A stretch of 64,000 nucleotides of DNA from an uncultured Candidatus Saccharibacteria bacterium (GTDB lineage Bacteria > Patescibacteriota > Doudnabacteria > UBA920 > O2-02-FULL-48-8): the NCBI GenBank assembly GCA_964405805.1, contig CAYOPE010000001.1, positions 4,898-68,897 on the forward strand, written 5' to 3'. The notes below the pieces were generated by a model. That model was not told where the DNA came from, searched no databases, and saw nothing but the letters and a program-made list of their open reading frames with translations. The position numbers and the translations under genes are program-made. Within the stretch, counting starts at the first letter, position 1, and the number at the start of each line of letters is the position of its first letter. Shown piece after piece: positions 32,595-61,959 of this stretch.

Positions 32595-33134
32595 TTATCC
32601 GTTGAACTTTGACTGCGCAATGTCTAGTCCTTCAGTTTGGAGGATTTCGATAGCGGCTTTGGTTTTTTCGAGAACTTCTTTGACGATTTGTTCTTCGTCT
32701 GAAGAAAATTTTTGTAATACATAAGCATCGCCAGGCATTTGTCCACGCGTTTGAGGATTGTCGATCCCAAGTCTGATGCGGATGAAATCTTGAGTGCCTA
32801 ATTCATCAATTACTGATTGCACCCCGTTGTGGCCTGCGCCTGAAGCACTTTTTTGAATCCGGATAGCTGCAAGTGGCAGATCCAACTCATCATGAACTAC
32901 CACTAGCTCTGCGTCTGGATAAAATTTCAGAATTTCTTTCACAGCCTCACCTGATTTGTTCATAAAAGTTTGTGGTCTGGCTAAAATCACATCATCAAGC
33001 TTGATAAATTCACAATTATATTTGTTTTCCCACTTTTCGCCATTGGCCAGCAAGTCTAAACAGCGAAAACCCAGATTGTGTCTGGTGTTTTCGTATTGTT
33101 TTCCGGGATTACCAAGGCCTACTATGAGCATCAT
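32595..33134 (-). CDS. pth: Peptidyl-tRNA hydrolase
   Basis: MMLIVGLGNPGKQYENTRHNLGF... is a canonical Pth N-terminus. Confidence 0.9.
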   Translation of the reverse strand: MMLIVGLGNPGKQYENTRHNLGFRCLDLLANGEKWENKYNCEFIKLDDVILARPQTFMNKSGEAVKEILKFYPDAELVVVHDELDLPLAAIRIQKSASGAGHNGVQSVIDELGTQDFIRIRLGIDNPQTRGQMPGDAYVLQKFSSDEEQIVKEVLEKTKAAIEILQTEGLDIAQSKFNG

Positions 33135-38032: not shown

Positions 38033-38065
38033 TCCAAAATGTGTTATATATAGTGTGAAAGAGAG

Positions 38066-38314
38066 GTGAGTTTTTTGGTAGAAGTGAAAAGAAAAGAGAA
38101 TGAATCGTTTGAATCCCTGCTTCGGCGCTTTAATCGCAAGATTCAGCAAAGCGGTGTTTTGGTTCGTGCTCGCAAGATCAGATTTTTCGTGCCGAGCAAG
38201 TCTCGAAATCTACTTCGTGAAGATGCGGCTCGTAGAGCTGTCAATCGCGAGAAGCGTGAAGAATTGAAAAAACTCGGCAAGCTGCCGACCAAAACCACAT
38301 TCAGGCGACGCTAG
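38066..38314 (+). CDS. rpsU: 30S ribosomal protein S21
   Basis: ...ENESFESLLRRFNRKIQQSGVLVRARKIRFF...KSR... is the bS21 pattern. Confidence 0.8.
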   Translation: MSFLVEVKRKENESFESLLRRFNRKIQQSGVLVRARKIRFFVPSKSRNLLREDAARRAVNREKREELKKLGKLPTKTTFRRR

Positions 38315-38998: not shown

Positions 38999-40246
38999 AT
39001 GGCGCGCGAACAAATATTTGTGGGCCTCGATATCGGATCATCCATGATCCGAGTGGTGGTCGGAAAGCAAGAATCAGAGCTAGGCACACCTAGTATTATT
39101 GGCGTTGGCGAAGCCACCTCTGCTGGCATTCGTAGAGGCGTGATTGTCGACATTGACGAAGCCGTATCCTCGATCTCAGAAGCGCTAGAAAAAGCCGAAC
39201 GCATGACTGGACTGACTATCGACCATGCTGTGGTCTCTGTCGGAGGTGCGCAAATCACGTCCCAGGAAAGCCACGGCGTGATTGCTGTGGCTCGGGCTGA
39301 TGGGGAGATTACCGAAAACGATGTTGTGAGAGTCGTCGACGCTTCGCAAGCCATTTCCATTCCAGCAAATAGAGAAATTCTCCATGTCATCCCGAAAAAT
39401 TTCACAGTGGATGGTCAGACTGGAATCAAAGATCCAGTGGGCATGTCAGGAATTCGCCTGGAAGTCGACAGCCAGATCATTCAGGCCTCAGTGCCATTTA
39501 TAAAAAACCTGACCAAGTGCATCATGCAGGCAGGACTTGAGATTGATGACTTGGTTTTATCACCTCTTGCCGCTGCTCAAGCAGTTTTGAGTAAAAAGCA
39601 AAAAGAATTAGGCGTGGGATTAGTTGATCTCGGCGGCGGGACCACTGGTCTGATCGTTTTTGAAGAAGGCGATCTGGTTTCTTCCACGATTTTGCCAGTA
39701 GGCAGCATGCATATCACGAATGATTTAGCTATCGGCCTTCGCACTTCTGTGGATGCTGCGGAAAAAATCAAGCTCCAGTACGGCCAGGCCGAGATGCGGG
39801 AAGTGAAAAAAGATTTGGATGTGGATTTGGCCAAAATCGACAGGCAAGAAGAAGGAAAGGTGTCAGTTAAGCACATCGCTGAGATCATTGAGGCGCGTTT
39901 GGAAGAGACTTTTGAGCTTGTAAATAAAGAATTGAAGAAAATCAACAAAGACGGCCAGCTGCCAGCTGGAATTGTCTTGACAGGTGGTGGCGCAAAACTT
40001 CCCGGTGTGGTAGAATTAGCCAAAAAGCAGTTGCGTTTACCAGTAGTCAGTGGTCTTCCGGGTTCAGTGACTACTGTCATTGACCGAGTCGATGACCCAT
40101 CGTTTGCTACAGCAGTAGGTTTGGTCCTCTGGGCCAATGAATTTTTACTCGGCAGCAGTCGCACTGTAAATAAATTTGCTCGCAAGGTCCTAGAAAACGA
40201 TACAGTGAACAATTTACGGAAATGGTTTAAGAGTTTTCTCCCATGA
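38999..40246 (+). CDS. ftsA: Cell division protein FtsA
   Basis: Actin-fold motifs [15 protein letters not shown] and [17 protein letters not shown], plus a C-terminal amphipathic tail. Confidence 0.9.
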
Positions 40247-41385
40247 AATTAAGATCCCAACAAGTGAGTCCCAAAATTCAAACTTTTGCTCGAATTAAAG
40301 TTATCGGCGTGGGCGGCTCAGGCCACAATGCCATCCATCGCATGATGGAAACCGGTATTCATGGTGTGGAATTTGTCGCTATCAACACTGATGCACAAGC
40401 GCTTCACAATTCCGAAGCTGATTATAAAATTCATATCGGAAAAACTTTGACTCGTGGTCTTGGCGCTGGTATGAATCCAGACATTGGTCGTGCTGCAGCA
40501 GAAGAATCCAAAGATGAGATCCTAGATGTCATTCGGAACGCTGACATGGTCTTTATCACTTGTGGTCTTGGTGGTGGTACTGGTACTGGCGCTGCTCCAG
40601 TCGTGGCCGAGCTTGCGAAGAAGACTGGCATTCTGACCGTAGGTGTAGTCACCAGGCCATTTGCTTTTGAGGGTCTGAAGCGAAAAGAGATTGCTGAGAA
40701 GGGCCTAGATCAGCTCAAGCAGCATGTCGATACCATAATCGTCATTCCGAATGATCGAATTTTACAAATTATTGATAAAAAAACTTCGCTTCTTGATGCT
40801 TTCCGTACTGTGGATGATGTTCTGCACCAAGGTGTGGCTGGAATTTCGGATTTGATCACTACACCTGGCATGATCAATGTTGACTTTGCTGATGTGAAGG
40901 CAGTCATGCAGAATGCAGGCTCAGCACTTATGGGCATTGGCCGCGGCACTGGCGAAAATCGAGCCATGGATGCAGCCAGAGCAGCAATTGATTCGCCATT
41001 ACTCGAACTTTCTATTGACGGGGCACGTGGAGTCCTCTTTAACATCACTAGCGGCAAGGATTTGAGCATGTATGAGGTGGAAGAAGCCGCGAAATTTATT
41101 ACCAAATCAGTGGATCCAGATGCAAAAATTATTTTTGGCGCAGTTATCGACGATGAGATGGACGAAGAAGTGAAGATTACTGTGGTCGCCACAGGTTTTT
41201 CCGCCGGAGGCGGATCCGCCTATGGCGGAGATGATACATATAAACGACGGGAAGAACCCATGAAGACTGAAGTGAAGAAGCCGGTGTTTGCACCGAAAGT
41301 CATTGAAGAAGAACCAGAGCATCACGACACTTCAGATCAAGACGAACTCGAGATCCCAGCGTTTATACGAAAGAAGATTAAATAG
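40243..41385 (+). CDS. ftsZ: Cell division protein FtsZ
   Basis: Tubulin signature [14 protein letters not shown]-terminal conserved peptide [12 protein letters not shown]. Confidence 0.97.
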
Positions 41386-41469
41386 TCACGTATCACGTAA
41401 CAAAACCACGTTCAGGCGTGGTTTTTTGATTTTCGACTTTATGCTATGCTACGGCTAACATAAACACTC

Positions 41470-42135
41470 ATGGCCAAACAAAAACCAGGCCAGAGGAGGA
41501 AAATGAAGACTTATAGCAACGTCGTTCTTGTCGATCACCCAGTGGCGCATGATGCGCTACGGATTCTGCGCGACAAGAACACCGAGCCTGCTGCTTTTCG
41601 AGCAGCAGCGATGCGCATCAGCCTGATCCTGGCTGCAGAGGCTCTCCGGGAGGCTCCGACTGAAGAGAGAGTCGTGCAAACCCCGCTGGCGGAAGCAGCT
41701 GCTCAGAGCCTCAAAGACATCGTGGTCGTGCCAGTGTTGCGCGCAGGTCTCGGCATGCTCGACGCCGTCTTGCAGCTGGCGCCAAACGCCCACGTCGGTC
41801 ACATCGGATTGCAGCGAGACGAAGTGACGGCCGTGGCGTCGCAGTACTACCTGAAACTACCGCCAAATCTCGAGAGCTCTCTCGTTCTGCTGGTTGACCC
41901 CATGCTCGCCACCGGCGGCAGCGCTGTGGCAGCAGTTGATCTTCTGAAACTCGCAGGAGCCACGAACATCAGGATGATCTGCATCGTGGCGGCTCCTGAG
42001 GGCATCGCACTCATGACCGAGAAGCATTCGGATGTCACGATCTATACGCCTGCAGTGGACAGTCATCTGAACGACCAAAAGTACATCGTGCCGGGTCTCG
42101 GTGACTTCGGCGACCGACTCTACGGCACATTCTAG
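41470..42135 (+). CDS. upp: Uracil phosphoribosyltransferase (GC-rich island)
   Basis: PVLRAGLGM and VLLVDPMLATGGSAVAAVDLLK PRPP-binding motif, C-terminal YIVPGLGDFGDRLYGT. ~60% GC. Confidence 0.88.
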   Translation: MAKQKPGQRRKMKTYSNVVLVDHPVAHDALRILRDKNTEPAAFRAAAMRISLILAAEALREAPTEERVVQTPLAEAAAQSLKDIVVVPVLRAGLGMLDAVLQLAPNAHVGHIGLQRDEVTAVASQYYLKLPPNLESSLVLLVDPMLATGGSAVAAVDLLKLAGATNIRMICIVAAPEGIALMTEKHSDVTIYTPAVDSHLNDQKYIVPGLGDFGDRLYGTF

Positions 42136-42322
42136 AACTAAAAGCACAAGGGCCGATCAATAGTGGTCGGCTCGAGGAAGTGTGGTTCACAGCAGCCACG
42201 CTTTTCTTTTTGCTTTTTTTCTATTTTATAATTATAGTAACCGCAACGGAAACCTGTCTGCCGACAGGCAGGCGAAAGTTTTCAGGGTGCTATCAGCACC
42301 TTTACAGAAAGGTTGGAGGAAG

Positions 42323-43822
42323 ATGGACAAGCTTAACGCGGTCGAAGTTGGTCAGCATATGGCAAATATTGGCGTCATGGGTGATGCCTGCGGCGGAGTT
42401 CAGATCGACATCGCCGTGGCCTATCGTCAGACGCCGGAAGGACTGGTCGAAGGAACGACATGCGACCATGACTGCACGAACAACGAAGGCTGTGGCAATT
42501 ACGACTGCCCGGCTCACTACAGCGCTCCTGGAAACAGAGGTTTGAAAATCACGAGCATGGCGCCGGCTGATGTCATGCTGGACCGGATCACCAACGCTGT
42601 CTGGGGAGTACGCCGGGCCGTGGAGCGGTTTCTGGAAGTTGATTACCACGGCTTCTGTTACACGTCTGAGATTCGTGACGAAGTCGTGAAAGGTGTGATC
42701 GAGAGCCGGCTGCGCATGGGCAAGGTCATCGTGAATGTCTTTGGCGGCGAGCCGCTTCTCTACCCGCACTTCCTTCAGCTCGAAGGGGCGCTGATGGACC
42801 GCGGTTACACGTTGAACGTCACGACCACGGGGGACAAATGGCTCGATCCGAAGTTCGCCAAGGCCATGGAAGACATCGAGCCCACTGTGCTGGCATTGAG
42901 CCTGGATGATCTGACGATTCCGGAACTCCGGCGCCTCTCGAAGCTCACGCCCGAGCAGATCAAGCAGGAATGGAAAGCTCTCAGGGCGAAAAACCCCAAG
43001 CATGGGCAGGCGCTCAAAGCCCTCGAAGCCGTTTACGTCTTCGCGTACTACAAGGAACGTGGCGGCTATCCCAAGGGCAAGAAGCTCCTGGCCAACGCGG
43101 TGGTCCACAAAGGCAACCTGTCTCACATTCGCGACATGTTCGAGGTCGTGGCTGAAGTCGCTCCGGGGATCGTGTTCAATCCGTACGCAGGTCAGGCTGC
43201 GTTCGACCACGATGAAACAACCGGCCTGCGGCGTCGTGGAGAATTCGGCGCCGACGAAGTCCAGCAGTTCTCGGATTTCGTGGACTGGTCGATTTCGGAA
43301 AGCAAGCGGCCGGATGGTGTGATCGTCAAACGTTTGCCGCACTGGCTCCTGCATCGGGCAGCACTCGATGTTCACGAAGGTAAGACACGGGAGCAGTCCG
43401 ACGCCATCGCTGGGTGGAACTCCTGGCGCTGTCACAATCACGTGGGCGCGGGATTCTTCATGCAAGTCGGTCGATCACCGAAAGTGCGGATACCGAATCA
43501 GCCGCAGGTGATTTCGATTCAGGGCCTGCACGGAAAGACCGGCAGTAACGGCCAAGTCTATCCGGGCGGGCATCTGGGGTGCTTCTGGGATCCGACGACC
43601 GTAACCCAGGACGGACAGTACCACGACCAGATGGAGGTCATGGATTACCTGCACTACGGCATGAAATCTCTCGCGCAGAAGTCTGCTGATCCCTGTCCCG
43701 GATGCCGAATGCCGCGGCTTGACTCACTCCATCTCGTGATCCTCGAGGCAGGGATTCCGACTGACGATCCGACGCTGAAGAACCGGTATCTGAATCTGCG
43801 TCGAGAGCACGCCGGGTTCTAA
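42323..43822 (+). CDS. Hypothetical Cys-rich protein, possibly a divergent radical-SAM-type enzyme
   Basis: ATG after GGAGG. N-terminal cluster CDHDC-x5-C-x4-C, then VNVFGGEPLL (radical-SAM-like glycine motif) and LNVTTTGD ~22 aa later. C-terminal cysteines CPGC. The Cys spacing is not the canonical CX3CX2C. Confidence 0.45.
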   Translation: MDKLNAVEVGQHMANIGVMGDACGGVQIDIAVAYRQTPEGLVEGTTCDHDCTNNEGCGNYDCPAHYSAPGNRGLKITSMAPADVMLDRITNAVWGVRRAVERFLEVDYHGFCYTSEIRDEVVKGVIESRLRMGKVIVNVFGGEPLLYPHFLQLEGALMDRGYTLNVTTTGDKWLDPKFAKAMEDIEPTVLALSLDDLTIPELRRLSKLTPEQIKQEWKALRAKNPKHGQALKALEAVYVFAYYKERGGYPKGKKLLANAVVHKGNLSHIRDMFEVVAEVAPGIVFNPYAGQAAFDHDETTGLRRRGEFGADEVQQFSDFVDWSISESKRPDGVIVKRLPHWLLHRAALDVHEGKTREQSDAIAGWNSWRCHNHVGAGFFMQVGRSPKVRIPNQPQVISIQGLHGKTGSNGQVYPGGHLGCFWDPTTVTQDGQYHDQMEVMDYLHYGMKSLAQKSADPCPGCRMPRLDSLHLVILEAGIPTDDPTLKNRYLNLRREHAGF

Positions 43823-43852
43823 ACGTAAATGGAGGACGGATGAAGAGACTGG

Positions 43853-43890
43853 CGGGTGCGCGTAGCGATTACGCGCCCCGCCTTTTTTCA
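43853..43890 (+). terminator. GC-rich rho-independent terminator
   Basis: ggcgggtgcgcgtagcgattacgcgccccgcc-tttttt. Confidence 0.7.
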
Positions 43891-43958
43891 TTTGCTAGTT
43901 TTTGTTTGTGGACGCTATAATGCATAAGTCAACCGAGACTCCGAGTTGGAGTTCTCAC

Positions 43959-44456
43959 ATCAACGGAGGTTTGCCTATGTGTCCCGAAAGTCTCGCGCAT
44001 CTCGCACGAGGAACGGCCGAGGTCGGTGATCAAGTCGTCGCCAAGGACTTCAAGCACCAGGGCAGCAGTCACACGTTCACGATGTACGCGCGCACGGACA
44101 ACCCGACGTGTCCGGTCTGTCTGCCGAACGGCGCCACGATCTGCTTCAAGGATCCGTCGAGGCGGGTTCGCCGGCTCGCGGAAGTCACAGACGGTCCGGT
44201 CGTGGCCACACTCGCCAACGGCGCGTTCTACGAGAGCACGTTCGCATTCGCGAACGGCGCGACGGCCACGCTGTCGGAGATCCGCGGTGCGGTCTTCAAC
44301 GTCATTCCCGCCATCGCCACGAGCGACGAGATCAACGAGGAGGCGCGGCGCATCTTCACTGAACTCAGCCCGGAACTCGATCCGGTGCTCGCTCAGGCCG
44401 CGGCGACGGCACGCATCGCCCGAACCCAGTCGCGCGGCCAGACGGTCGCGGCGTAG
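43959..44456 (+). CDS. Hypothetical protein (GC-rich island)
   Basis: ATG 8 nt after GGAGG. The alternative frame 44026-44820 is Arg/Ser low-complexity and judged spurious. Confidence 0.5.
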   Translation: MNGGLPMCPESLAHLARGTAEVGDQVVAKDFKHQGSSHTFTMYARTDNPTCPVCLPNGATICFKDPSRRVRRLAEVTDGPVVATLANGAFYESTFAFANGATATLSEIRGAVFNVIPAIATSDEINEEARRIFTELSPELDPVLAQAAATARIARTQSRGQTVAA

Positions 44457-44620
44457 CACGTCGCGTTCGACGCCGACACAACCAAGCGACGCAGGAAGCG
44501 TCGGGGCGGTTCACCACCAGGTGATCCGCTCTTTTCATTTGTCAGAAAATGCATGCGTTTGGTATCCTATAGTATCAAGCGCAGGGCTTGGTAATGTTTT
44601 CAGTCTGAAACGGAGGAGAG

Positions 44621-46102
44621 ATGATCCCAAGATATACGAATTCTCGGATCCAGGCTATCTGGTCGGATCAGAACAAGACCAGGCTCTGGGATTGCAGCGA
44701 ACTCGCTGCGGTCCAGGCTTCGGAAGAGCTTGGCGAATTTCCTGCCGGCGTGTATCAGAAGATTGCCGCATCGCTCGCAGCACATCCTGTGGATCTCGAG
44801 TGGTGGCTTGCGAAAGATAAAGAAATCCATCACGACCTCAATGCCTACCTCGAAGAGCGGCTGCGGTTCATCGTCAAGAACCTACAGATCTACTTTCATC
44901 GCTACATGACCTCGTTCGACACGGAGGAGCCGGCGTTCGGCCGAATGCTTCGTGACTCAGTCGACGTGGTACTCGAAATGTGTGCTGAACTCGATCTGAT
45001 TCTGGCTTCGCTGGCGCGCAGATACCAGTACACGGTCATGATCGGACGCAGTCATCAGCAAGGCGGCGATCTGCAGACTTTCGGCAAAAGGGTCTGCACG
45101 TGGCTACGAGATCTTCGTACTGCCGCCCAGATTCTGGGCGATGTATCGGTCGATCTCAAGTACTCGAAGATGTCAGGGGCCATGGGTAACTATGGTCTGT
45201 TCAAACCAGAAGTCGAGCGCCGAGCACTCGCGATTCTCGGCTTCGAGCCGTACGTCGGTGCCACACAGATTATGCCGCGGGTGCTTTACGTGCCAGTGGC
45301 TGCTGCGCTTTCGGGTTTGGTCTCGACTATTTCGAAAATCGGCAATGACATCCGCCTCGGCGCGCGCAGTCCGAAGCCCATCTGCCAGGAACCGTTCAAG
45401 AAAAAACAGAAGGGTTCGTCGGCCATGCCGCACAAGAAGAATCCGATTCGCTGCGAACAGCTGGAAGGCATGGCCAGGGTTGCCCGTGGCTTCCTATCGA
45501 TGAACGCCGAAAACGTGCAGACTGACGAGGAGCGCGCCATCGAACAGTCCTCAGTGGAACGAATCGCATGGCCGGACCTGTTTCATGTCACTTGTCAGGC
45601 TCTGGATGTGCTGACCCAGGTCACGTCCGGGTTGAAAGTCTATCCCGATAACATGCTCTGGGAACTCGTCCAATCGCGTGGTTGCTACGCGGCGTCACAG
45701 GCCAAAGAAGTCCTAAAGACCATGGGCGAGGAGCTGTGGAATGACGCTGAGGAGCCGTACCGAATAGTCCAACTGGCTGCGTTCAACGTCTTTGAACCCA
45801 GCCAGAAAGCAAAGCGCATGCGCGAATTCCCGGAAACCTCGTTTGCTTTCGCCGAAAATTTCCTGATGGCGCCACACTCGTTCGAAACCGAGTGTGTCAC
45901 CATCCAGGAGGTGATCGTGCGCGGGCGGCTGCGGGTATCTGATGAGCTCGACGCGGACGAAGCAGTGGTGCAGCGCTGGAATCGCATTCTGGATTCGATT
46001 TTCGCGGACGAACGGAATCGCGACCAGTGGACGGAAATTTTTCGTCCAGCAGTACTTCTGGCTCACGAGTCCGCGATCTTCGCAGCGCTCTTGGGCGAGT
46101 AG
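44621..46102 (+). CDS. purB: Adenylosuccinate lyase (fumarate lyase family)
   Basis: N-terminus MIPRYTNSRIQAIWSDQNK... and the fumarate-lyase signature GSSAMPHKKNP. Confidence 0.85.
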   Translation: MIPRYTNSRIQAIWSDQNKTRLWDCSELAAVQASEELGEFPAGVYQKIAASLAAHPVDLEWWLAKDKEIHHDLNAYLEERLRFIVKNLQIYFHRYMTSFDTEEPAFGRMLRDSVDVVLEMCAELDLILASLARRYQYTVMIGRSHQQGGDLQTFGKRVCTWLRDLRTAAQILGDVSVDLKYSKMSGAMGNYGLFKPEVERRALAILGFEPYVGATQIMPRVLYVPVAAALSGLVSTISKIGNDIRLGARSPKPICQEPFKKKQKGSSAMPHKKNPIRCEQLEGMARVARGFLSMNAENVQTDEERAIEQSSVERIAWPDLFHVTCQALDVLTQVTSGLKVYPDNMLWELVQSRGCYAASQAKEVLKTMGEELWNDAEEPYRIVQLAAFNVFEPSQKAKRMREFPETSFAFAENFLMAPHSFETECVTIQEVIVRGRLRVSDELDADEAVVQRWNRILDSIFADERNRDQWTEIFRPAVLLAHESAIFAALLGE

Positions 46103-46201
46103 AATTCGGGTTTTGAGTTCGGGCGGGTTGCGCTTGCAGCCCGCCCTTTTTCTATAGTATGATGTCCTATCTAGTTCCCTTCGTTCTGAGAGGAGGATTG
46201 T

Positions 46202-46798
46202 GTGACCGAAGCTGTGATCTTTGACTGCTGCGAAGTACTCTTAACCGGAGTTAAGGGTTGCTACGAGCAGTTCGGAAAACTGCTCGGAACCGATCCTGCG
46301 ACTGTGAAGTCTCGCCTCATGTGCGACATGGCTATGCGTCTGTTTTCCGGCCAGGCCACAGAAGAGGAGTATTGGACTGATGTCATCCGGCGTTCAGGCT
46401 GGACTCACGATAGTAAAGTCTTGGGCAAGCAGCTGCGCCGAAGCTTTCGAGAGATCCCAGGTACACGCAATCTCATCCGAGCCATGCGACGACAGGGATA
46501 CAAAACCGGTCTGCTTTCAGTGCACGCCCGCGAGTGGGTCGAGTACTGTCAGAGGCGCTTTCGTCATCACTGTCTGTTTGATGTGGTGCACTACTCGTAC
46601 CAGTTCCAACCGTCCAAACCGCATCCAGAATCGTTTGTGAATCTGGCTGCGGCACTGGGCGTCAGTATCACCAACTGCGTGGTCGTGGATGACCGCGCTG
46701 AAAATATCATTGCGGCCAGGACCCTGGGTGCCCAAGGGGTGATTTTCGAAACTGCTGAGCAGACAGAAGCAGAACTGTTTTCCCTGCTCAGACTCTAA
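46202..46798 (+). CDS. HAD-superfamily hydrolase-like protein
   Basis: GTG after GAGGAGG. AVIFDCCEVLL (motif I-like, second Asp replaced) and VVVDDRAENI (motif IV). Confidence 0.55.
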   Translation: MTEAVIFDCCEVLLTGVKGCYEQFGKLLGTDPATVKSRLMCDMAMRLFSGQATEEEYWTDVIRRSGWTHDSKVLGKQLRRSFREIPGTRNLIRAMRRQGYKTGLLSVHAREWVEYCQRRFRHHCLFDVVHYSYQFQPSKPHPESFVNLAAALGVSITNCVVVDDRAENIIAARTLGAQGVIFETAEQTEAELFSLLRL

Positions 46799-46815
46799 CT
46801 GACGAGGAGTGTGAC

Positions 46816-48114
46816 ATGACGACTAAGTTTGTTCGAGGCGAGAAGGTGGCCGAAGGCAAGACCAAGGTGATTTACGCAGACGAGAACGACCCGACCGGCG
46901 CCATCGTCTTTTCCAAGGACGATCTGACAGCCGGCGACGGCAAGCGGCACGAGGTCTTCGATGGCTTCGGCGCACTGTCGAATCTGACGACGATCAACAC
47001 ATTCAGCCTGCTCCGCGCCTGCGGCATCCCGGTGGCGTTTCGCGAGAAGATCGATGACAGGACGCTCTCAGCGGATCTGACAGACATGATTCCGCTCGAA
47101 GTGGTGACGCGTCGCGAGGCGCACGGCTCGTTCCTCAAGCGCCATCCGTACCTGAAGCGCGACCACTACTTCCCGCGCCTCGTCTTCGAGCTGTTCCTGA
47201 AGACATCGGGAAAGAAGTGGAAGGAACACAATCTGCTCTGCGACGATCCTTACATGGACTACACGTCGCGACAGGAGCAGGGTTTGGTCGGGTTGTTCTT
47301 GCCCGATCAGCCCCTCTGGTCGCAGCCTTCACCTATGCATGTGGTGAACAGTTCTGAGATCGAAGGGTTTGAGCGCCTGCAGGAGATCGAGGAGATCACC
47401 AGAAAGGTCACCCTCGTCCTGGACAAGGCGCTGCAGATGGTCGGGATCAGGTTCGCGGACATGAAGATCGAGTTCGGAATCACGAAAGATGGCCGACTCG
47501 TGGTCTCAGACGTGATCGACAGTTCGTCGTGGCGGATCGTGGGACCGGACGGGAAGTACATCGACAAACAGCTGTTTCGAGACGGAGCCGAGGTTCCAGT
47601 CATGGCGCAGGTTTTCGCCCGAGGGCTCGAGATCACAAGCCGGTTTCAGGTGCCACCGAAGCAGCAGATCGTCATCTGGACCGGCTCACCGAAGGACGAG
47701 GTCTCGAAGTTCAAAGAGTGGTTGGAGAGTCATCCTCTGCCAATCCAAGTCGTGTATGTGGCCCTGTCCGCGCACAAGCAGCCTGTCCTGGCCGTTCAGA
47801 AGCTCCAGCAGCTCGTGCAGATGACGCCGGACACAGTGGTGGTGGCGTTCATCGGCCGATCCAACGGCGCCGGCCCCACGCTCTCCGGTGCAGTCAGTGT
47901 GCCTGTCCTGACTGTGCCGGCGGACTTCCAGAAAATGCCGGAAGATGTCTGGTCGAGTTTGCGCACACCGAGTGACGTGCCAGTCTCGACCATGCTGGAA
48001 CCCGGGAATGCCCTGCTTCAGGCGGTCCAGATCTTGGCGATGCGCAATCCGCAGCTATATATGGAGCTGCGTCATCGACAGGAAGATCGCCTGAGCAACT
48101 TCGCGCTGCTGTAG
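46816..48114 (+). CDS. purC: Bifunctional PurC-PurE fusion (SAICAR synthetase N-terminal, AIR carboxylase/PurE-like C-terminal)
   Basis: N-terminal ...GEKVAEGKTKVIYADENDP...VFSKDDLTAGDG... is PurC-like. The C-terminal 150 aa (LSAHKQP, GRSNGAGPTLSG, VPVLTVP, NALLQAVQILA) parallel PurE motifs (SAHRTP, AGGAAHLPG, VPVIGVP). Confidence 0.7.
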   Translation: MTTKFVRGEKVAEGKTKVIYADENDPTGAIVFSKDDLTAGDGKRHEVFDGFGALSNLTTINTFSLLRACGIPVAFREKIDDRTLSADLTDMIPLEVVTRREAHGSFLKRHPYLKRDHYFPRLVFELFLKTSGKKWKEHNLLCDDPYMDYTSRQEQGLVGLFLPDQPLWSQPSPMHVVNSSEIEGFERLQEIEEITRKVTLVLDKALQMVGIRFADMKIEFGITKDGRLVVSDVIDSSSWRIVGPDGKYIDKQLFRDGAEVPVMAQVFARGLEITSRFQVPPKQQIVIWTGSPKDEVSKFKEWLESHPLPIQVVYVALSAHKQPVLAVQKLQQLVQMTPDTVVVAFIGRSNGAGPTLSGAVSVPVLTVPADFQKMPEDVWSSLRTPSDVPVSTMLEPGNALLQAVQILAMRNPQLYMELRHRQEDRLSNFALL

Positions 48115-48204
48115 AGCAGTTCGACGACGGGCGCGCGAAAGTCACGGGCGGGGGCGATTGTTTATCAGGTTCTTCTGAACCTGACAAGCTTCGCTCCCGA
48201 TTTT

Positions 48205-49365
48205 TTATTTTGTTTCTACGAGATCCCACACATATTTCGCGGCGTTGATGGGTTTGCCGATGAGGGGATCGTGGTGAAGCTGGATGAATGGCGCGCCATT
48301 GCACTCAATGATCCCGCATTTTTGCTCTTTGTAAGATTTAGTGATGTCAGGAATGATAAAATCAAAGCCGAGAATTGATACATCCAGAAGCTGGCCAGCT
48401 TTCGCCAGCATCTCTTTCGTCTCTGGATGTGTCTCATCAGTGCAGTCATAAGAAGTGCCGCCATAATTGACGCCAATTTTTTCAGAAAGTGCCACAGTCT
48501 GATCTTTGGCCAAAATTAAATCCATACCGAGACTATTGCGCTGCATGAAATACGGATTGACTTTTATCTCTTTTACTTTGTCCGGTCTCTGGGCATCTTT
48601 GATTTTGATGAGTTCTGCGATAGTGTGAATGCCATCACCAGTGACCTGAGGCGAGGAGCCGCCTAGGACTCCGACTAGTTTGCCTCCGATCACAGTACCA
48701 CGCTGCACATCGCCATAGAGATGTTCTTCGATGATAACCCAGTGGCAGACTTGCTTGGAAATTTTAAAAGCTTTTTCCAAATCGTCTTTGGTGTAGACCA
48801 TGGTCGTGGTGTGTCGGCCGCGGGAGCCAGCACGCGGCTTGACGATAAGAGGCTTTTCGAGGGCATCAAATGTTTTGAGGGCTTGAGATACTCTAGTAAA
48901 TGACCCACCAGCAGCCACAGGGAAGTGATATTCGAGTAATTTTTTCTTCAGAAGATATTTATCATCAATCCAAGTTAGGTTTGAGGTAGCGACTTTTTCT
49001 GATCTTGGCAGATTCATAAAATAATGCCAGCGGTTTTGGAGCTTTACTCGATACAGATCTATGGATTTGCCAAATGGCTTGAGTTCCTCGATCTGAAGTC
49101 CTCTGGCGAGCGCTTCTTCCCATAGGACACGCGCACGATCATAAGGAATATTTTTTATATCGCGATTGATTTGAATGAGTCCGAGTGGTTTCAGAACATG
49201 AAAAACAGAAATGCCGATCCATTCGCCAAGTTTGTCCATGATTTGGCCCAACCGACTCTGGACCAAGGTCCGCCTGATCGGGCTAAACAGAATATCTATG
49301 GATTCATAGAATTTGTGAGTCCTGTGCGGTATGGGGTTATTCCCACAGTAAAGGCAGGTTTGCAT
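48205..49365 (-). CDS. ATP-grasp domain protein (cyanophycin-synthetase-N-terminal-like / amino-acid ligase)
   Basis: ATP-grasp core (...KPRAGSRGRH..., GGTSYDCTDETHPE...ILGFDFIIPDITKS). Start placed at MQTCLYCGN because the upstream 78 nt of the longer ORF translate a palindromic repeat. Confidence 0.65.
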   Translation of the reverse strand: MQTCLYCGNNPIPHRTHKFYESIDILFSPIRRTLVQSRLGQIMDKLGEWIGISVFHVLKPLGLIQINRDIKNIPYDRARVLWEEALARGLQIEELKPFGKSIDLYRVKLQNRWHYFMNLPRSEKVATSNLTWIDDKYLLKKKLLEYHFPVAAGGSFTRVSQALKTFDALEKPLIVKPRAGSRGRHTTTMVYTKDDLEKAFKISKQVCHWVIIEEHLYGDVQRGTVIGGKLVGVLGGSSPQVTGDGIHTIAELIKIKDAQRPDKVKEIKVNPYFMQRNSLGMDLILAKDQTVALSEKIGVNYGGTSYDCTDETHPETKEMLAKAGQLLDVSILGFDFIIPDITKSYKEQKCGIIECNGAPFIQLHHDPLIGKPINAAKYVWDLVETK

Positions 49366-49402
49366 GAGTGAATTATACCCCTCACCCGGCGCTTCGCGCC
49401 AC

Positions 49403-49426
49403 CCTCTCCCGGAAGCGGGAGAGGGA
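49403..49426. repeat. Perfect hairpin ccctctccc-ggaa-gcgggagaggg (CTCC/GGAG hairpin family)
   Basis: Same family as 11668-11708, 55227-55248, 55631-55649 and others. Confidence 0.6.
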
Positions 49427-49566
49427 AAATCTGAATTTGACAAACTAAATTCTCAGAAGACACTTTTGTTGATAAGTTTTTCTAGATGTAGAGCGGTAAA
49501 GCAAAATCTATCGAAAAAGTGGGTTTTGACAGGTTTCTATATATAGCGATATATTAACTATGGTTA

Positions 49567-49582
49567 ACACAAGATATTGTGT
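49567..49582. promoter_or_regulatory. NrdR box
   Basis: ACACAAGATATTGTGT is a perfect 16-bp palindrome matching the NrdR-box consensus acaCwAtATaTwGtgt, ~130 nt upstream of nrdR. A degenerate partner (tatatagcgatatat) lies ~30 bp upstream. Confidence 0.6.
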
Positions 49583-49710
49583 TTCCGAAGGCTTAAGGCT
49601 TAGCCTGAGACAAAAAATCAAACAAAAAAGCTTAAGATTGGTTCATTTTACATAGTATCGAGAGGCTTGATGAAGCGTTTTCGCCTATTTTTTTTCGTTC
49701 TCAAAAATCC

Positions 49711-50154
49711 ATGCGTTGCCCTAATTGTTCGAATGAAGACACAAAAGTTTTAGACTCTCGCCCCATCTCTGATGGGATGGCTATTCGGAGGCGCCGGGAA
49801 TGTACGAAATGTGGGGCTAGGTTCTCCACTCACGAGGAAATGGAACTGCTGGATCTGACTGTGGTCAAGCGTGATGGCAGCACCCAGGCCTATATGAGAG
49901 AGAAAATCGAGAATGGGATCAGAAAAGCTTTTGAGAAAAGGCCTCTGAGCCACGATGATTTCCATGCTTTGATCGTCGGCATCGAGCAGGACATCCAGAA
50001 AACCGGAAAAAGTCAGGTCGCGACCAAAGAAATCGGCAACATCGTCATGAAGCGCATAAAAAGTCGGGATCAAGTCGCTTACATCCGGTTTGCAAGTGTG
50101 TATCGCAAGTTTGCAGACGTAGAAGAGTTTGTCAGAGAAGCAAAAAAACTATAA
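49711..50154 (+). CDS. nrdR: Transcriptional repressor NrdR
   Basis: Zn ribbon MRCPNCSNEDTKVLDSR...CTKCGARF followed by an ATP-cone. Confidence 0.9.
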   Translation: MRCPNCSNEDTKVLDSRPISDGMAIRRRRECTKCGARFSTHEEMELLDLTVVKRDGSTQAYMREKIENGIRKAFEKRPLSHDDFHALIVGIEQDIQKTGKSQVATKEIGNIVMKRIKSRDQVAYIRFASVYRKFADVEEFVREAKKL

Positions 50155-50156
50155 TC

Positions 50157-50225
50157 TACGAAATTACGAAATAGTACGAAAATACGAAATGTTCGTACTT
50201 TCGTAGAAAATTCGTACTTCGTAGA
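50157..50225. repeat. TACGAAA inverted-repeat element, copy 2
   Basis: gtacgaaaatacgaaatgttcgtactttcgtagaaaattcgtacttcgtaga, between nrdR and nrdJ; compare 15318-15395. Confidence 0.7.
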
Positions 50226-50254
50226 TAGTAACAAGAATTAACTAAGAACAAACC

Positions 50255-52909
50255 ATGCAACCAAAAGAAAACCTACAAGAAAGAAAAGTAAATGCACTCG
50301 CTGAGCTTGGCGAAAAGATTTTCCTCGATCGCTACGCCATTAAGGACGCGAAAAAGGAAAGTCTCAGTGTAGGTGATACTGCGGTGGTATGTGTGAACCT
50401 AAAAACCGGGCAGCGTGAGATCGGGGTACTGGAAAAAATCGACAGAGAAGCACGCGAAGTAGTAGTCAAGCTTCGTGATGGCACTCTCGAAACTCGATCT
50501 ATTGATCATGTGGACAAGCCATTGGAAACTATGCCAGAACAGATGTTTGAACGCATTGCCAAACACATTGCATCAGTTGAAAACACAGATGAATTGAAAC
50601 AAGAATGGGAAGGACGATTTCGCGAGCTCATGAATGACTGGAAATACGTGCCAGCAGGAAGAATTTTTACAGGCGCAGGCACTGGCCAGAATCTGACTTT
50701 TTATAATTGTTACGTCATACCTTCCCCGCGCGATTCGCGAGGTGGAATTTTCGAGACCCTGGGCCAAATGGCGGAAATCATGTCACGCGGCGGCGGGGTA
50801 GGAATCAATGTCTCGACACTGCGTCCTCGCTACGCTTATGTGAAAGGCGTGAATGGCCGTTCTTCTGGCTCTGTGTCCTGGGCATCACTTTATTCATTTG
50901 TCACTGGGCTCATTGAGCAGGGCGGATCCAGACGCGGAGCGCTGATGTTGATTTTAAACGTCTGGCATCCTGATGTCGTGGATTTTATCAATTCGAAAAA
51001 AGAAGCCGGCAAGATTACGAATGCGAATATTTCTGTAGGAATCACAGATGATTTCATGACTGCGGTGAAGAATGACCAGCCGTGGGATCTAGTTTTTCCA
51101 GACACTTCAGATCCGATGTACCGCGATCGCTGGGATGGAAACATCGGTCGCTGGAAGGAAATTGGTGGTAAAGTCATCAAGCACAAGACGGTTCGTGCCA
51201 AAGACATTTGGGAAAATATTATTTCCTCTGCATGGTCTTCTGCTGAGCCTGGCATGTATTTTATTGATCGAGCGAATTACTACTCCAATTCTCACTATTT
51301 CGCAGATCTGCCATGCACGAATCCTTGTGGCGAGCAGCCGCTGCCTGCCTGGGGCGTGTGTAACCTCGGTCACATCAACCTTGCCAAGCACGTGGATTAC
51401 AGTAAAAAAGATGTGGACTGGAATAAATTAAAGAGAACTGTGCAGGATGCAGTCAGATTTCAGGACAATGTCATTGATGCGACACCTTATTTCTTTGATG
51501 AAAATTATCAGCAGCAAATGAGTGAGCGCAGAGTTGGCATGGGCACGATTGGTCTTGCTGAAATGCTGATTCATTTGGGACTCCGTTATGGTTCTCCTCA
51601 AGGAGTTGAGTTTATCGATAAACTTTACCAGTTTATTTCTATCACAGCCTACGAAACTTCAGTTGATCTCGCTCGTGAAAAGGGTGCGTTTAGTAAATTC
51701 GAAGTTGATAAGTTTTTGCAATCAGGCTTCATGCAGCGAATGCCAGAATACATTCGCCATCTCGTGCGCCAATACGGAATTCGAAACGTAACTATTTTGA
51801 CACAAGCACCGACTGGGACTGTGGGAACAATGGTAGGAACATCCACAGGCATCGAGCCGTTCTTCTCTTGGACATATTTCAGAAAATCTCGACTCGGTGT
51901 GCATCAGGAGCACATCAAACTTGCCAAAGACTGGCTGGATGCGCATCCAGGCGAATCTCTGCCTGACTATTACGTCACAGCTATGGAACTGACTCCAGAA
52001 GAGCACGTGCGTGTGCAGGCTGCTGTGCAGCGCTGGACTGATAGCGCTATCTCAAAAACTGTAAATGCGCCAGAAAACTATACTGTGGAGCAAACTGCGA
52101 AACTCTATGAGTTGCTGTATGATTTGGGAGCTAAAGGCGGGACGATTTACAGAGATGGCTCACGTGATGAACAGATCTTGGCTGTAGATCATAAAAAATT
52201 GGGCAAAGATGCGGCTGAACAAGTGGAGAATGGTAAAGCTGTGATCAAACAGGAACAGCCTGTTCAACCAATACCAACTCCTGAACCTGCCCCAGCACCT
52301 CAAATGCCACCGCAGCCTCAGATGAACTCAATCCAACCCCGCAAGCGACCAGATGTCATGCAAGGATCGACTTATAAAGTCGCGACAGCTTATGGTAATC
52401 TTTATGTCACGGTCAATGAAGACGAGTATGGACCATTTGAAGTTTTCTCGCAGCTTGGCAAGGCTGGTGGCTTCTTCGGCGCTCAGACTGAAGCGATTTG
52501 TCGCATGATTTCTCTGGCACTGCGCTCAGGAATTAGTTTGCCTACAGTTGTCGAGCAGCTCAAAGGCATCCGCGGTCCGGATCCCATGTTCCACAATGGT
52601 GAGCGCATTTTGTCGCTCCCAGATGCGATTGCAAATGTCCTAGAAAATCACATTAAGCGCGGACAGAAAGAACTCCAGCTGGATTTTTCAAAGATAGAAA
52701 AGTCTTCCTTCGCTAAAGCTTCGGAGGACAAGCAACCCGTCTTTCAAGCAGTAACCAAAGAAGTTCATTCTACCGGTTCCGCGTTTGTCACCACACAGAA
52801 GGCAGTTGCTGACTTTGGCGATGCGCCAGTGTGTATGGTTTGTAGCAACATGCTTCGCATGGCAGAAGGTTGCATGAAATGTGAGTACTGCGGGTGGAGT
52901 AAATGCTGA
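50255..52909 (+). CDS. nrdJ: Class II (adenosylcobalamin-dependent) ribonucleotide reductase
   Basis: Active-site NPCGEQPLPAWGVCNLGHINL and a C-terminal Cys-rich tail CMVCSN...CMKCEYCGWSKC; 884 aa. Confidence 0.88.
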   Translation: MQPKENLQERKVNALAELGEKIFLDRYAIKDAKKESLSVGDTAVVCVNLKTGQREIGVLEKIDREAREVVVKLRDGTLETRSIDHVDKPLETMPEQMFERIAKHIASVENTDELKQEWEGRFRELMNDWKYVPAGRIFTGAGTGQNLTFYNCYVIPSPRDSRGGIFETLGQMAEIMSRGGGVGINVSTLRPRYAYVKGVNGRSSGSVSWASLYSFVTGLIEQGGSRRGALMLILNVWHPDVVDFINSKKEAGKITNANISVGITDDFMTAVKNDQPWDLVFPDTSDPMYRDRWDGNIGRWKEIGGKVIKHKTVRAKDIWENIISSAWSSAEPGMYFIDRANYYSNSHYFADLPCTNPCGEQPLPAWGVCNLGHINLAKHVDYSKKDVDWNKLKRTVQDAVRFQDNVIDATPYFFDENYQQQMSERRVGMGTIGLAEMLIHLGLRYGSPQGVEFIDKLYQFISITAYETSVDLAREKGAFSKFEVDKFLQSGFMQRMPEYIRHLVRQYGIRNVTILTQAPTGTVGTMVGTSTGIEPFFSWTYFRKSRLGVHQEHIKLAKDWLDAHPGESLPDYYVTAMELTPEEHVRVQAAVQRWTDSAISKTVNAPENYTVEQTAKLYELLYDLGAKGGTIYRDGSRDEQILAVDHKKLGKDAAEQVENGKAVIKQEQPVQPIPTPEPAPAPQMPPQPQMNSIQPRKRPDVMQGSTYKVATAYGNLYVTVNEDEYGPFEVFSQLGKAGGFFGAQTEAICRMISLALRSGISLPTVVEQLKGIRGPDPMFHNGERILSLPDAIANVLENHIKRGQKELQLDFSKIEKSSFAKASEDKQPVFQAVTKEVHSTGSAFVTTQKAVADFGDAPVCMVCSNMLRMAEGCMKCEYCGWSKC

Positions 52910-61628: not shown

Positions 61629-61641
61629 CGAAGGAGGTCTC

Positions 61642-61947: not shown

Positions 61948-61959
61948 TACTCCGAGTTT

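Follow-up and report, generated by a model that had tools for sequence, protein, structure and literature searches.

In chromosomal integration hotspots and islets, a fixed slot between core genes carries a variable cargo of atypical composition, and the slot is empty in outgroups. The locus considered here has all of these properties, yet it is without integrase, transposase, tRNA or att repeats, and its cargo keeps to one theme, nucleotide synthesis, remaining GC-rich and led by SD sequences over deep divergence. A second point of comparison is translation of the Bacteroidia type, which is reportedly independent of SD sequences, rpsU keeping a strong one. Backbone genes here are likewise largely without SD, and rpsU is preceded by an extended SD (GAGGTGA) both in the genome at hand and in its relative L006, which suggests an unusual use of the anti-SD. 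The differences are that the host in this case belongs to the CPR and that a GC-rich, apparently acquired minority of genes is SD-led throughout.

The features of the locus, found in a 64,000-nt stretch of DNA (the window, meaning the whole of what was analysed), are shown in Table 1. The gap between ftsZ and nrdR is a variable hotspot. I consider it probable that the GC-rich island within it is a mosaic cargo, consisting of two nucleotide-synthesis modules placed in a hotspot of gene turnover between ftsZ and nrdR-nrdJ of Candidatus Doudnabacteria. Module A (upp, the radical-SAM gene and an orphan ORF) would make UMP from uracil and PRPP. Module B (purB, a HAD hydrolase gene and a PAICS-like fusion of purC with a class II purE) would carry AIR through CAIR and SAICAR to AICAR with no need of PurK, and its PurB would also convert adenylosuccinate to AMP.

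Table 1. Features of the ftsZ-nrdR locus, in coordinates of the window. Starts of upp, the radical-SAM gene and the orphan ORF were corrected to ATG codons at 41503, 42323 and 43977; the Logan gene call for upp likewise gives 210 aa.
Feature	Position	Strand	Remarks
ftsZ	40243..41385	+	left backbone anchor; Pfam Tubulin/FtsZ_C on Logan gene call
terminator-like hairpin after ftsZ	41402..41425	+	left island edge
upp, uracil phosphoribosyltransferase, 210 aa	41503..42135	+	ATG preceded by SD (AGGAGG)
non-canonical radical-SAM enzyme, 499 aa	42323..43822	+	CX3CX10C after beta-1, GGEP motif, C-terminal 4-Cys site
orphan ORF, 159 aa	43977..44456	+	GC3 0.78; SD GGAGGT; Logan gene call
purB, adenylosuccinate/SAICAR lyase, long CPR-type form, ~494 aa	44621..46102	+	GSSAMPHKKNP signature
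strong GC-rich intrinsic terminator after purB	46121..46146	+	11-bp stem, 9 GC pairs, T-run
HAD-IA hydrolase, 198 aa	46202..46798	+	GTG start; 17 nt upstream of purC-purE
purC-purE fusion, 432 aa	46816..48114	+	N-terminal SAICAR synthetase, C-terminal class II AIR carboxylase
ATP-grasp ligase, cyanophycin-synthetase/GshAB ATP-grasp-like	48205..49365	-	NCBIfam TIGR02068, 173 bits, partial
nrdR promoter-like site and NrdR box ACACAAGATATTGTGT	49526..49582	+	
nrdR and class II ribonucleotide reductase	49711..52909	+	right backbone anchor; Pfam

An earlier note on this DNA had described a GC-rich block of six genes, each at 58-60% GC, against a backbone of 38%. The block is there, with a GC content of 57.4% over its coding span (41494-48114) as compared to 45.7% in the rest of the window, but the backbone lies at about 45-46% and the genes, while GC-rich, are not uniform, ranging from 54 to 63% (upp: 58%, with GC3 of 0.67). 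It is the 6.6-kb stretch of highest GC in the window (the runner-up reaches 51%), and 1-kb windows of the backbone have a standard deviation of 3.4% and a maximum of 54.3%. GC3 is 0.60-0.78 in island genes and about 0.45 in flanking genes, ftsZ, for example, having a GC3 of 0.41, a GC content of 46.5% and no SD. The distance in dinucleotide signature between the island and the rest is 129, whereas backbone chunks of equal size give 42 +/- 18 (maximum 83.5), and composition steps sharply at both edges. The GGAGG-type ribosome binding sites that the note reported precede all six island genes, as compared to 6 of 47 backbone ORFs (Fisher p = 4e-5), and the same division between cargo and backbone is seen in seven relatives (L006, L010, L011, L013, L003, L004, L144). 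Of the GC-rich terminators it reported, the one after purB is clear, and the hairpins after upp and purC-purE are weaker. No NrdR box lies inside the island. The window contains a second GC-rich islet, with a gene of the Gram-negative TonB_C type.

Steps as sharp as these might be produced if assembly or binning had put the contig of a GC-rich organism into a Doudnabacteria scaffold. The left junction nevertheless reappears in a Logan contig from an independent assembly (L002), which matches positions 39120-42775 of the window exactly. The right junction (48115-48204) is spanned by none of the independent contigs retrieved (span tested, 48120-49383), a circumstance that counts against the mosaic reading as well, and the Logan contig L001 stops 5 bp past the stop codon of purC-purE. 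Since the adjacencies ftsZ-upp-radical-SAM, ftsZ-purB-purC and purC-purE-nrdR recur in independent assemblies from other samples, made by other assemblers, I find a chimera scarcely credible.

The flanks of the island are conserved. FtsZ is 85% and 81% identical to its counterparts in two Candidatus Doudnabacteria MAGs (the former MFEJ01000004), and NrdR and the class II ribonucleotide reductase are 82-85% identical to those of L006. The ATP-grasp gene has backbone composition and stands outside the GC-rich island, though it is part of the variable locus: the protein is 74% identical to its L006 homologue and 27% to that of L013, whose gene, in contrast to that of the window, is transcribed in the direction of ftsZ and nrdR.

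What lies between the flanks varies greatly. From ftsZ to nrdR the window has 8.3 kb, L036 about 108 bp and L042 about 0.4 kb, and the distance comes to 1.2-1.7 kb in each of L015, L019, L020, L021 and L023. More distant relatives have a gap of about 0.1-1.7 kb, and outgroups have an empty slot. Other slots are filled differently: with pyrF and a PRT gene (pyrE) in L013 (3.6 kb), with upp, the radical-SAM gene and toxin-antitoxin genes in L006 (6.5 kb), with upp and the radical-SAM gene in L010, with purB-purC following ftsZ in L144, and with pyrF-pyrE-purB-purCE preceding nrdR in L003. These cassettes are likewise GC-rich and SD-led. At 80-86% identity of FtsZ, genomes differ qualitatively in gene content, with upp and the radical-SAM gene in some, pyrF and pyrE or purB and purC in others. 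Cargo proteins are 44-73% identical, as compared to 73-88% for those of the backbone. Between the window and L006, for instance, backbone proteins are 73-88% identical while UPRT and the radical-SAM enzyme are both at 46%, and between the window and L003 the values are 80% for NrdR, 59% for PurCE and 50% for PurB.

Because close relatives hold other combinations at the same slot, its content appears to have come together as genes were gained laterally and replaced, recombination via the conserved flanks being the probable route. The source pool appears to be GC-richer, SD-using and largely within the CPR, the PurCE family being otherwise mainly verrucomicrobial. PurB is of the CPR type and, in quick NJ trees rather than model-based phylogenies, the radical-SAM proteins and PurCEs of the Doudnabacteria group are each monophyletic; the exchange therefore looks mostly intra-CPR.

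The earlier note took the block to be a horizontally acquired module. Foreign GC, GC3 and dinucleotide signature, SD sequences on every gene and a patchy distribution in close relatives all agree with acquisition. They do not extend to acquisition as one recent unit, that is, a single transfer of the entire 6.7 kb from a GC-rich donor outside the CPR, for example a verrucomicrobial host. GC and GC3 that are high throughout, the abrupt edges, the verrucomicrobial affinity of the nearest named PurCE homologues and the presence of the islet with the TonB_C gene are what such a transfer would lead one to expect, but upp-radical-SAM (L006, L010) and purB-purC(E) (L144, L003) occupy the slot separately, PurB is of CPR type, and most of the radical-SAM family comes from CPR-like contigs. 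The search for a donor through homologues and trees turned up no close one, the best outside matches being about 50-55% identical. There is no integrase or transposase among the island's ORFs, no att site or flanking direct repeat was found at its borders, and the nearest tRNAs are at 21.8 and 35.9 kb. Nor are there phage genes adjacent to the island, and viral homologues were not found, leaving a phage auxiliary metabolic cluster unsupported. I therefore regard one recent transfer of the whole block, whether or not a mobile element carried it, as quite improbable. The same lack of mobility genes, tRNA, flanking repeats and viral homologues to explain how cargo moved also weighs against the mosaic reading, as does the high GC3 retained at 44-73% protein identity, which simple transfer followed by amelioration does not explain.

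The opposite extreme is vertical descent: an old locus in which selection would maintain high GC and leading SD sequences, its genes forming a class apart in expression or translation within a genome otherwise independent of SD, and which has undergone rapid evolution and differential loss. Monophyly of the radical-SAM proteins and PurCEs at one locus is expected here too, and to that extent counts against a mosaic; that all relatives use one chromosomal slot, that the GC-rich, SD-led signature persists in each of them despite deep divergence, and that rpsU has its extended SD in an SD-poor backbone are also in accord with it. Less easily accommodated are the qualitatively different gene contents at so little divergence of FtsZ, cargo identities about half those of the backbone, the empty slot of outgroups, a window PurB closer to those of other CPR lineages (54-55%) than to that of L003, and GC-rich singleton radical-SAM genes within low-GC contigs (L104, L129). 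I consider this explanation unlikely, though less so than the preceding one, and prefer a mosaic assembled in place.

HMM and PDB matches bear out the identities first proposed for upp, purB, purC-purE and the HAD and radical-SAM-like genes, and the enzymatic activities that follow are predicted from them. That PurE, PurC, PurB and Upp should be encoded in a symbiont-type genome was also borne out, the host being a member of the CPR. Upp scores above both equivalog cut-offs (NF001097, 247.5 bits against 114; TIGR01091, 240.4 against 208) and matches PF14681 (232.8 bits). Its translation contains what I take, from the E. coli and Bacillus enzymes, to be the PRPP-binding loop (VLLVDPMLATGGS) and the C-terminal uracil-binding loop (YIVPGLGDFGDRLYGTF), and the uracil loop as read, YIVPGLGDFGDR, is canonical.

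PurB matches PF00206 (Lyase_1; 103 bits) and reaches 286.8 bits with TIGR00928, under the equivalog cut-off of 326.2. Its signature fits that of the fumarase/aspartase superfamily (GSSxMPxKxN), its C terminus is extended by about 100 aa, and its top 18 PDB matches are all adenylosuccinate lyases (best, that of T. maritima, 1c3u, E 4e-59). The nearest named homologues are from Falkowbacteria, Jorgensenbacteria and Patescibacteria (50-55%); top matches are of about 494 aa, and all those whose source name gives a lineage are from the CPR.

Two genes of the island are more obscure. The orphan ORF found no match in Pfam, NCBIfam or PADLOC searches, its sole match being a weak one to a hypothetical protein of L010 (hyp137), and its AF2 pLDDT is 39.7. 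The HAD hydrolase scores above cut-off (PF00702, 58.1 bits; PF13419, 49.9; TIGR01509, 43.3 against 29.4) and is absent from every related locus examined. In its motif I (FDCCEV) the nucleophilic Asp is present and the second (Asp+2) replaced; Asp+2 is also missing from some active HAD phosphatases of the YihX type.

The fusion protein most resembles animal PAICS. Insect and human PAICS are its best PDB matches across both domains (4ja0, E 4e-53; 2h31, E 3e-46), and they share the order of domains, PurC first, and nearly the length (425 vs. 432 aa). SAICAR_synt covers residues 11-131 and beyond (PF01259, 120.3 bits, gathering cut-off 20) and AIRC residues 285-424 (PF00731, 63.4 bits, cut-off 30). 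Against the purC and purE equivalogs the protein falls far under the NCBIfam cut-offs (TIGR00081, 87.9 bits vs. 189.9), and its activity is accordingly a prediction. The PurE motifs SAHK and GRSNGAGP align with those of PAICS (GRSNG(L/A)GP; LSAHKQP with TSAHKAT of 4ja0), and class II PurE as a rule has SAHK, not SAHR, in its 70s loop. In keeping with this, the PAICS carboxylase and the class II enzyme of T. denticola (3rg8, E 7e-7) outrank class I enzymes (E ~5e-4). Unlike PAICS the protein is bacterial, its nearest kin being about 1,800 prokaryotic fusions, mostly named as Verrucomicrobiota. That phylum accounts for nine of the ten lineage names among the top named matches, at about 50% identity, the tenth being Gracilibacteria, and PurCEs of the Doudnabacteria type form a clade of their own.

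The radical-SAM enzyme belongs to an uncharacterised family (some 117 cluster representatives) linked to UPRT and pyrimidine genes. It possesses the radical-SAM fold and the GGE SAM-binding motif, its score with PF04055 (29.0 bits) is marginally under the gathering cut-off of 29.5, and its similarity in sequence to solved radical SAM structures is marginal (profile vs. PDB, best E 1.5e-3). The nearest fold is the decarboxylase BlsE. Where BlsE, MoaA, SuiB, PqqE and anSME, of the twitch/SPASM type, have CX3CX2C, the 57 family members compared have invariant cysteines (C47, C51, C62) spaced as CX3CX10C, placed by the structure model in the loop after beta-1; the C-terminal site is formed by C370, C420, C458 and C461. 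The enzyme also differs in its size of about 500 aa, with an additional N-terminal beta-sheet, and in its partners, which are UPRT and pyrimidine genes rather than antibiotic or RiPP clusters. In 32 of 54 loci the family adjoins UPRT, dihydroorotase or an AsnRS-like fusion; CarB, PurD and PurF-like genes are also among its neighbours, and upp-radical-SAM is a two-gene cassette in many CPR contigs.

Prokaryotic viperin (pVip) was considered and rejected as an identity for this protein. About 300 aa and CX3CX2C would be expected, and the matches (PADLOC pVip, 21.4 bits over ~90 residues; NCBIfam viperin, 17.8 bits, where the cut-off is 180) are confined to the generic SAM-binding core. An island devoted to antagonism or phage defence, in which the enzyme turned UMP or UTP supplied by Upp into a viperin-like modified nucleotide, is for this reason highly improbable: besides its size and cysteine motif the protein has an auxiliary cluster domain, its family's neighbours are biosynthetic and not kinases or defence genes, and no relatives were found in IMG/VR or INPHARED.

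A role in the pyrimidine pathway fits these neighbourhoods better, the enzyme most plausibly making uracil from a de novo intermediate; it may supply uracil for UPRT. The closest known counterpart of the pair is canonical pyrE and pyrF, which L013 and L003 hold in the slot where the window has upp and the radical-SAM gene. Upp takes uracil rather than the orotate used by PyrE, and the radical-SAM enzyme is unrelated to OMP decarboxylase. Nonetheless, each pair joins a phosphoribosyltransferase to a second enzyme with UMP as the end product, and by analogy the two pairs would be functionally equivalent. That the radical-SAM family elsewhere lies beside uracil and pyrimidine genes offers a hint of an undescribed step in the making of UMP.

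The window holds the gene content of a CPR-type chromosome segment (type IV pilin-like genes, hrcA-grpE-dnaK-dnaJ, topA, ftsA-ftsZ, nrdR-nrdJ) and has a GC content of about 45-46%. Against this background the island, at 41.5-48.1 kb, is the 6.6-kb stretch of highest GC: 57.4%, as compared to 45.7% in the remaining window (1-kb standard deviation 3.4%, maximum 54.3%). The contrast that the earlier note had described is therefore real, but the figure of 38% it had given for the backbone is too low. The rise in GC is present at the codon level, with GC3 of 0.60-0.78 in the six island ORFs and 0.41-0.48 in ftsA, ftsZ, the downstream ATP-grasp gene and nrdJ. The dinucleotide-signature distance between the island and the rest is 129, whereas equal-sized chunks of backbone give 42 +/- 18.

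An abrupt shift in composition might arise from the joining of unrelated sequences during assembly. The independent Logan assembly of run SRR12313479 gives three contigs identical to the window over 39120-42775, 43975-48119 and 49384-52564, respectively, the first of which reproduces the left junction, ftsZ-upp. No independent contig spanning the right junction, between purCE and the ATP-grasp gene, was retrieved, the nrdR contig beginning at 49384, and exact-protein look-ups with the ATP-grasp gene, using two candidate starts, gave no match. Continuity at the junctions, a matter raised in the earlier note, was thus confirmed on the left and not on the right. Adjacencies of the same type recur in other samples and assemblers: ftsZ-upp-rSAM (rSAM being the radical-SAM-fold protein) in the related loci L006 and L010, ftsZ-purB-purC in L144, and purB-purCE-nrdR in L003. 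Given the reproduced left junction and these recurrences, an assembly chimera is very unlikely.

Features of the island and of the rest of the window, in order of position
Feature	Position in window	Observation
Second GC-rich islet	8518-11546	GC 54-62%
SLOG cluster-4 gene	9067-9606	In islet; LOG-like, nucleotide-related; SD-led
TonB_C-domain gene	9773-10540	In islet
ORF pair	11010-11546	In islet
Tandem paralogous secreted-protein genes	18191-18958, 19074-19799 (-)	GC3 0.57-0.59, above backbone
Low-GC ORFs	19878-20501, 24637-25308	GC 33-34%
Short GC-rich stretches	20505-21700, 31300-32600, 61300-61950	GC 51-56%; no long credible ORF
Small SD-led, high-GC3 ORFs in these stretches	31493-31726, 32020-32238, 61353-61628	GGAGG, GAGGTGA, AGGAGG, respectively
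rpsU (bS21)	38066/38075-38314	Extended SD GAGGTGA at 38063-38069
upp	41503-42135	Above equivalog cut-offs
Radical-SAM-like protein	42323-43822 (+)	499 aa
Orphan ORF	43977-44456	No relatives detected beyond a weak match to an ORF of L010
purB	44621-46102	Long-form adenylosuccinate lyase; below TIGR00928 cut-off
HAD-IA hydrolase	46202-46798	Only in window genome among related loci
purC-purE fusion	46816-48114	Best solved relatives insect PAICS (E 4e-53) and human PAICS (3e-46)
ATP-grasp ligase	48205-49365 (-)	Between island and nrdR
nrdR promoter-like site	49526-49582	TTGACA-18-TATATT
nrdR-nrdJ spacer	50155-50225	Direct and inverted TACGAAA heptamer repeats

Other stretches of the window are atypical as well. 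TonB_C, found in the second islet, is an energy-transducer domain of the Gram-negative outer membrane, a strange one for a CPR genome. The tandem secreted proteins share the same 26-aa signal peptide, and the SD-containing sequence upstream is likewise the same for both, and the two low-GC ORFs depart from the 45% backbone in the direction opposite to that of the island. No Rfam matches were found in the GC-rich islets outside the island.

Among the products of the island, Upp is a bona fide member of the UPRT family; the others include a lyase of the PurB family, a PAICS-like PurC-PurE(II) fusion, a HAD hydrolase and a radical-SAM-fold protein. The uracil loop of the UPRT is canonical. In PurB the GSSAMPHKKNP signature is intact, and every one of the best PDB matches is an adenylosuccinate lyase. 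The carboxylase domain of the fusion is class II-like, bearing SAHK and GRSNGAGP motifs and matched better by the class II PurE of T. denticola than by class I enzymes, and so PurK would not be needed. Judging from these families, purB, the HAD hydrolase gene and purCE (module B) would carry AIR through CAIR and SAICAR to AICAR and convert adenylosuccinate to AMP, while upp, the rSAM gene and the orphan ORF (module A) would serve UMP synthesis. The orphan ORF matched no family and has no conserved homologue 3' of the rSAM gene in other loci; its single-sequence AF2 model (pLDDT 39.7) is unusable. Fusions like PAICS in Verrucomicrobia or CPR bacteria are not described in the literature searched.

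In the island there is no riboswitch or leader RNA by Rfam at gathering or E<=1 thresholds, no integrase, no tRNA, and no meaningful direct or inverted repeat at the edges that might mark the borders of a mobile element. Control by NrdR was rejected, since the window has a single site with an NrdR box, at the nrdR promoter, where the promoter-like site overlaps a probable box pair (CTATATATAG core, ACACAAGATATTGTGT). Also rejected were membership in a defence system (the PADLOC matches, to pVip and ShosT, were weak and generic) and an origin in phage as auxiliary metabolic genes (searches of IMG/VR and INPHARED turned up no relative of the rSAM). Of the GC-rich terminators that had been proposed for the gene ends, there is a strong one after purB; only weaker hairpins follow upp and purCE.

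The GGAGG-type ribosome-binding sites proposed for the island genes are present in all six, and set these genes apart from their surroundings: only 6 of 47 backbone ORFs in the window have a Shine-Dalgarno (SD) match of 5 nt or more (p = 4e-5), and ftsA, ftsZ, nrdR, nrdJ, hisS and lepB are among those that have none. The same division runs through seven related loci (L003, L004, L006, L010, L011, L013 and L144), in which the cargo genes, those filling the gap between ftsZ and nrdR, are all SD-led and the backbone genes all SD-less, and it holds for purD-upp-rSAM in the rSAM-bearing contig L102. An exception on the side of the backbone is rpsU, whose extended SD is found likewise in L006 (4979-5218). 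In Bacteroidia the anti-SD is occluded and a strong SD is kept by rpsU. The SD-poor backbone and extended rpsU SD seen here resemble that condition and suggest that the core genome initiates translation independently of SD, as in Bacteroidia, with a separate class of SD-led genes. These genomes may keep two translational classes of gene: a backbone that lacks SD sites and a GC-rich cargo that has them. Together with the strong SD on rpsU, this division suggests unusual initiation biology in the lineage.

FtsZ is 85% and 81% identical to that of Candidatus Doudnabacteria MAGs. The gene order SPase-HisRS-...-ftsA-ftsZ-[gap]-nrdR-nrdJ-...-cobA is kept in many related genomes, and the gap is highly variable. 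It is about 108 bp in L036 and about 0.4 kb in L042, both without cargo, and 1.2-1.7 kb in L015, L019, L020, L021 and L023, most of which contain one small membrane-protein ORF. L013 (3.6 kb) carries pyrF, a PRT gene and an ATP-grasp gene; L006 (6.5 kb) carries small ORFs, a PIN gene, upp, rSAM, more small ORFs, a PIN/RHH gene and an ATP-grasp gene; and the window (8.3 kb) carries the island and an ATP-grasp gene. L144 reads ftsZ-hyp-purB-purC, and in L003 a pyrF-like gene, pyrE, purB and purCE lie directly 5' of an nrdR whose product is 80% identical to that of the window. Because size and content vary in this way among relatives, the slot is a hotspot, and its cargo in close relatives is always nucleotide-synthesis genes. 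Within Doudnabacteria, upp and rSAM fill the place held in L013 and L003 by pyrF and pyrE.

The ATP-grasp ligase resembles the ATP-grasp domain of cyanophycin synthetase and GshAB. It is 74% identical to its homologue in L006 (13230-14384) and 27% identical to that of L013 (8206-9396), which is co-directional with ftsZ and nrdR, the reverse of the orientation in the window. From this low identity and flipped orientation, the gene too behaves as cargo of the hotspot, although its GC is like that of the backbone. In L006 the upp-rSAM cassette is flanked by PIN-domain (8728-9141) and PIN/RHH (12548-13196) toxin-antitoxin genes of low GC (37-46%), which are missing from the slot of the window.

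Cargo and backbone differ in divergence. Between the window and L006, backbone proteins are 73-88% identical (FtsA 88, FtsZ 86, RNR 85, CobA 87, HisRS 78, SPase 73, ATP-grasp 74), as compared to 46% for both UPRT and rSAM. Against L003, PurCE (59%) and PurB (50%) fall below NrdR, and against L144, PurB (66%) falls below FtsZ (80%). The nearest PurB homologues outside the group (about 494 aa) are 50-55% identical, and those with a lineage in the source name are all CPR (Falkowbacteria, Jorgensenbacteria, Patescibacteria). The PurCE family comprises about 1,800 fusion proteins, the named top matches being Verrucomicrobiota at about 50% identity and one Gracilibacteria. In quick neighbor-joining trees the PurCEs of the Doudna type (window, L003, L004 and P0004) form their own clade, as do the Doudna rSAMs; the UPRT tree is poorly resolved as to the monophyly of the Doudna proteins. 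This pattern of divergence, the origins of PurB and PurCE, and the clades speak against acquisition in one recent step from a distant donor. The earlier note's horizontally acquired module survives as lateral exchange at the hotspot but not as a single recent import, and the reading favoured by these comparisons is of a mosaic that was probably gained, replaced and reshuffled there, largely within the CPR.

Cargo GC exceeds that of its own flanks in every relative, and its GC3 remains high even at degrees of protein divergence by which amelioration should have run its course. Either exchange with a GC-richer pool is ongoing, or the composition is held by selection. Singleton rSAM genes (L104:627-2021 and L129:5944-7341) have GC of 54-58% and GC3 of 0.64-0.71 amid neighbors of 36-45% GC, which suggests that a GC-rich version of the gene has spread laterally, and repeatedly, among CPR genomes.

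The rSAM family is small. When 5.8 billion proteins were searched by a word index, only three relatives came up; exhaustive HMMER comparison with 1.84 billion cluster representatives raised this to 117, mostly full-length, at 28-43% identity, under generic names only ("radical SAM protein", "organic radical activating enzyme"). Conservation across 57 members is complete at C47, C51 and C62 (CX3CX10C), and complete or almost so at C370, C420, C458, C461 and an FGG(E/N)PE motif. No solved structure is more than marginally similar in sequence. Structural comparison gave BlsE 18.7, SuiB 16.4, MoaA 15.6, PqqE 14.8 and viperin 13.9. BlsE is a radical-SAM decarboxylase with cytosylglucuronic acid as its substrate (PMC3715490).

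Neighborhoods were compared in 54 loci: 51 from a metagenome scan seeded with a 16-sequence alignment, plus the window, L010 and L011 (L092/L093, L094/L095 and L115/L116 are duplicate sequences). A UPRT gene directly adjoins rSAM in 22 of the 54, in variable order and frequently with overlapping start and stop; this pairing has no description in the searchable literature. Dihydroorotase adjoins it in four loci, and CarB is near it in three, beside dihydroorotase in L094/L095 and two small ORFs off in L120. The UPRT gene next to rSAM has PurD for a neighbor in L102 and a PurF-like gene in L126. The clearest link of the family to de novo pyrimidine synthesis is the low-GC CPR contig L094 (1683-10941), where carB, dihydroorotase, rSAM, an adjoining MGS-PyrD-PRTase triple fusion and a fumarase/aspartase-like lyase gene are co-directional. 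Six CPR contigs (L097, L098, L100, L105, L108 and L124) place 5' of rSAM, often overlapping it, a fusion of about 492 aa (e.g., L098:1462-2940) that joins a catalytic core like AsnRS or asparagine synthetase A to a domain like the allosteric (MGS) domain of CarB. This uncharacterised architecture may belong to the same pathway.

It is likely that the rSAM has a role in pyrimidine metabolism, and its coupling to Upp, dihydroorotase and CarB gives a specific hypothesis, namely that pyrimidine synthesis includes a new enzymatic step. The rSAM would convert a de novo intermediate, most plausibly dihydroorotate, directly to uracil by radical (oxidative) decarboxylation like that of HemN or BlsE, and Upp would turn uracil into UMP, bypassing PyrD, PyrE and PyrF in anaerobic, quinone-poor CPR bacteria. 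As an account of an unrecognised terminal branch to UMP, I consider this sequence of steps a long shot. Alternatively, the rSAM may be a radical decarboxylase of OMP or reduced OMP. By the route through uracil, the rSAM-upp cassette and the pyrF-pyrE pair would be interchangeable cargo at one Doudnabacteria hotspot.

On the current view, CPR bacteria rely on their hosts for nucleotides. In this one lineage the capacity to make them is modular and is swapped at a fixed hotspot beside the ribonucleotide reductase operon, the swapped genes bearing a distinct GC content and ribosome-binding-site signature. The locus therefore offers a concrete handle on the gain and loss of metabolic independence in reduced symbionts. 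An island of this kind, a chromosomal hotspot with laterally exchanged metabolic genes, is already known. What is unusual here is the thematic uniformity of the cargo, which consists of alternative nucleotide-synthesis cassettes; the durable GC-rich, SD-led signature of that cargo in an SD-poor CPR backbone; and the inclusion of a radical-SAM family, as yet uncharacterised, whose coupling to Upp and pyrimidine genes is tight.
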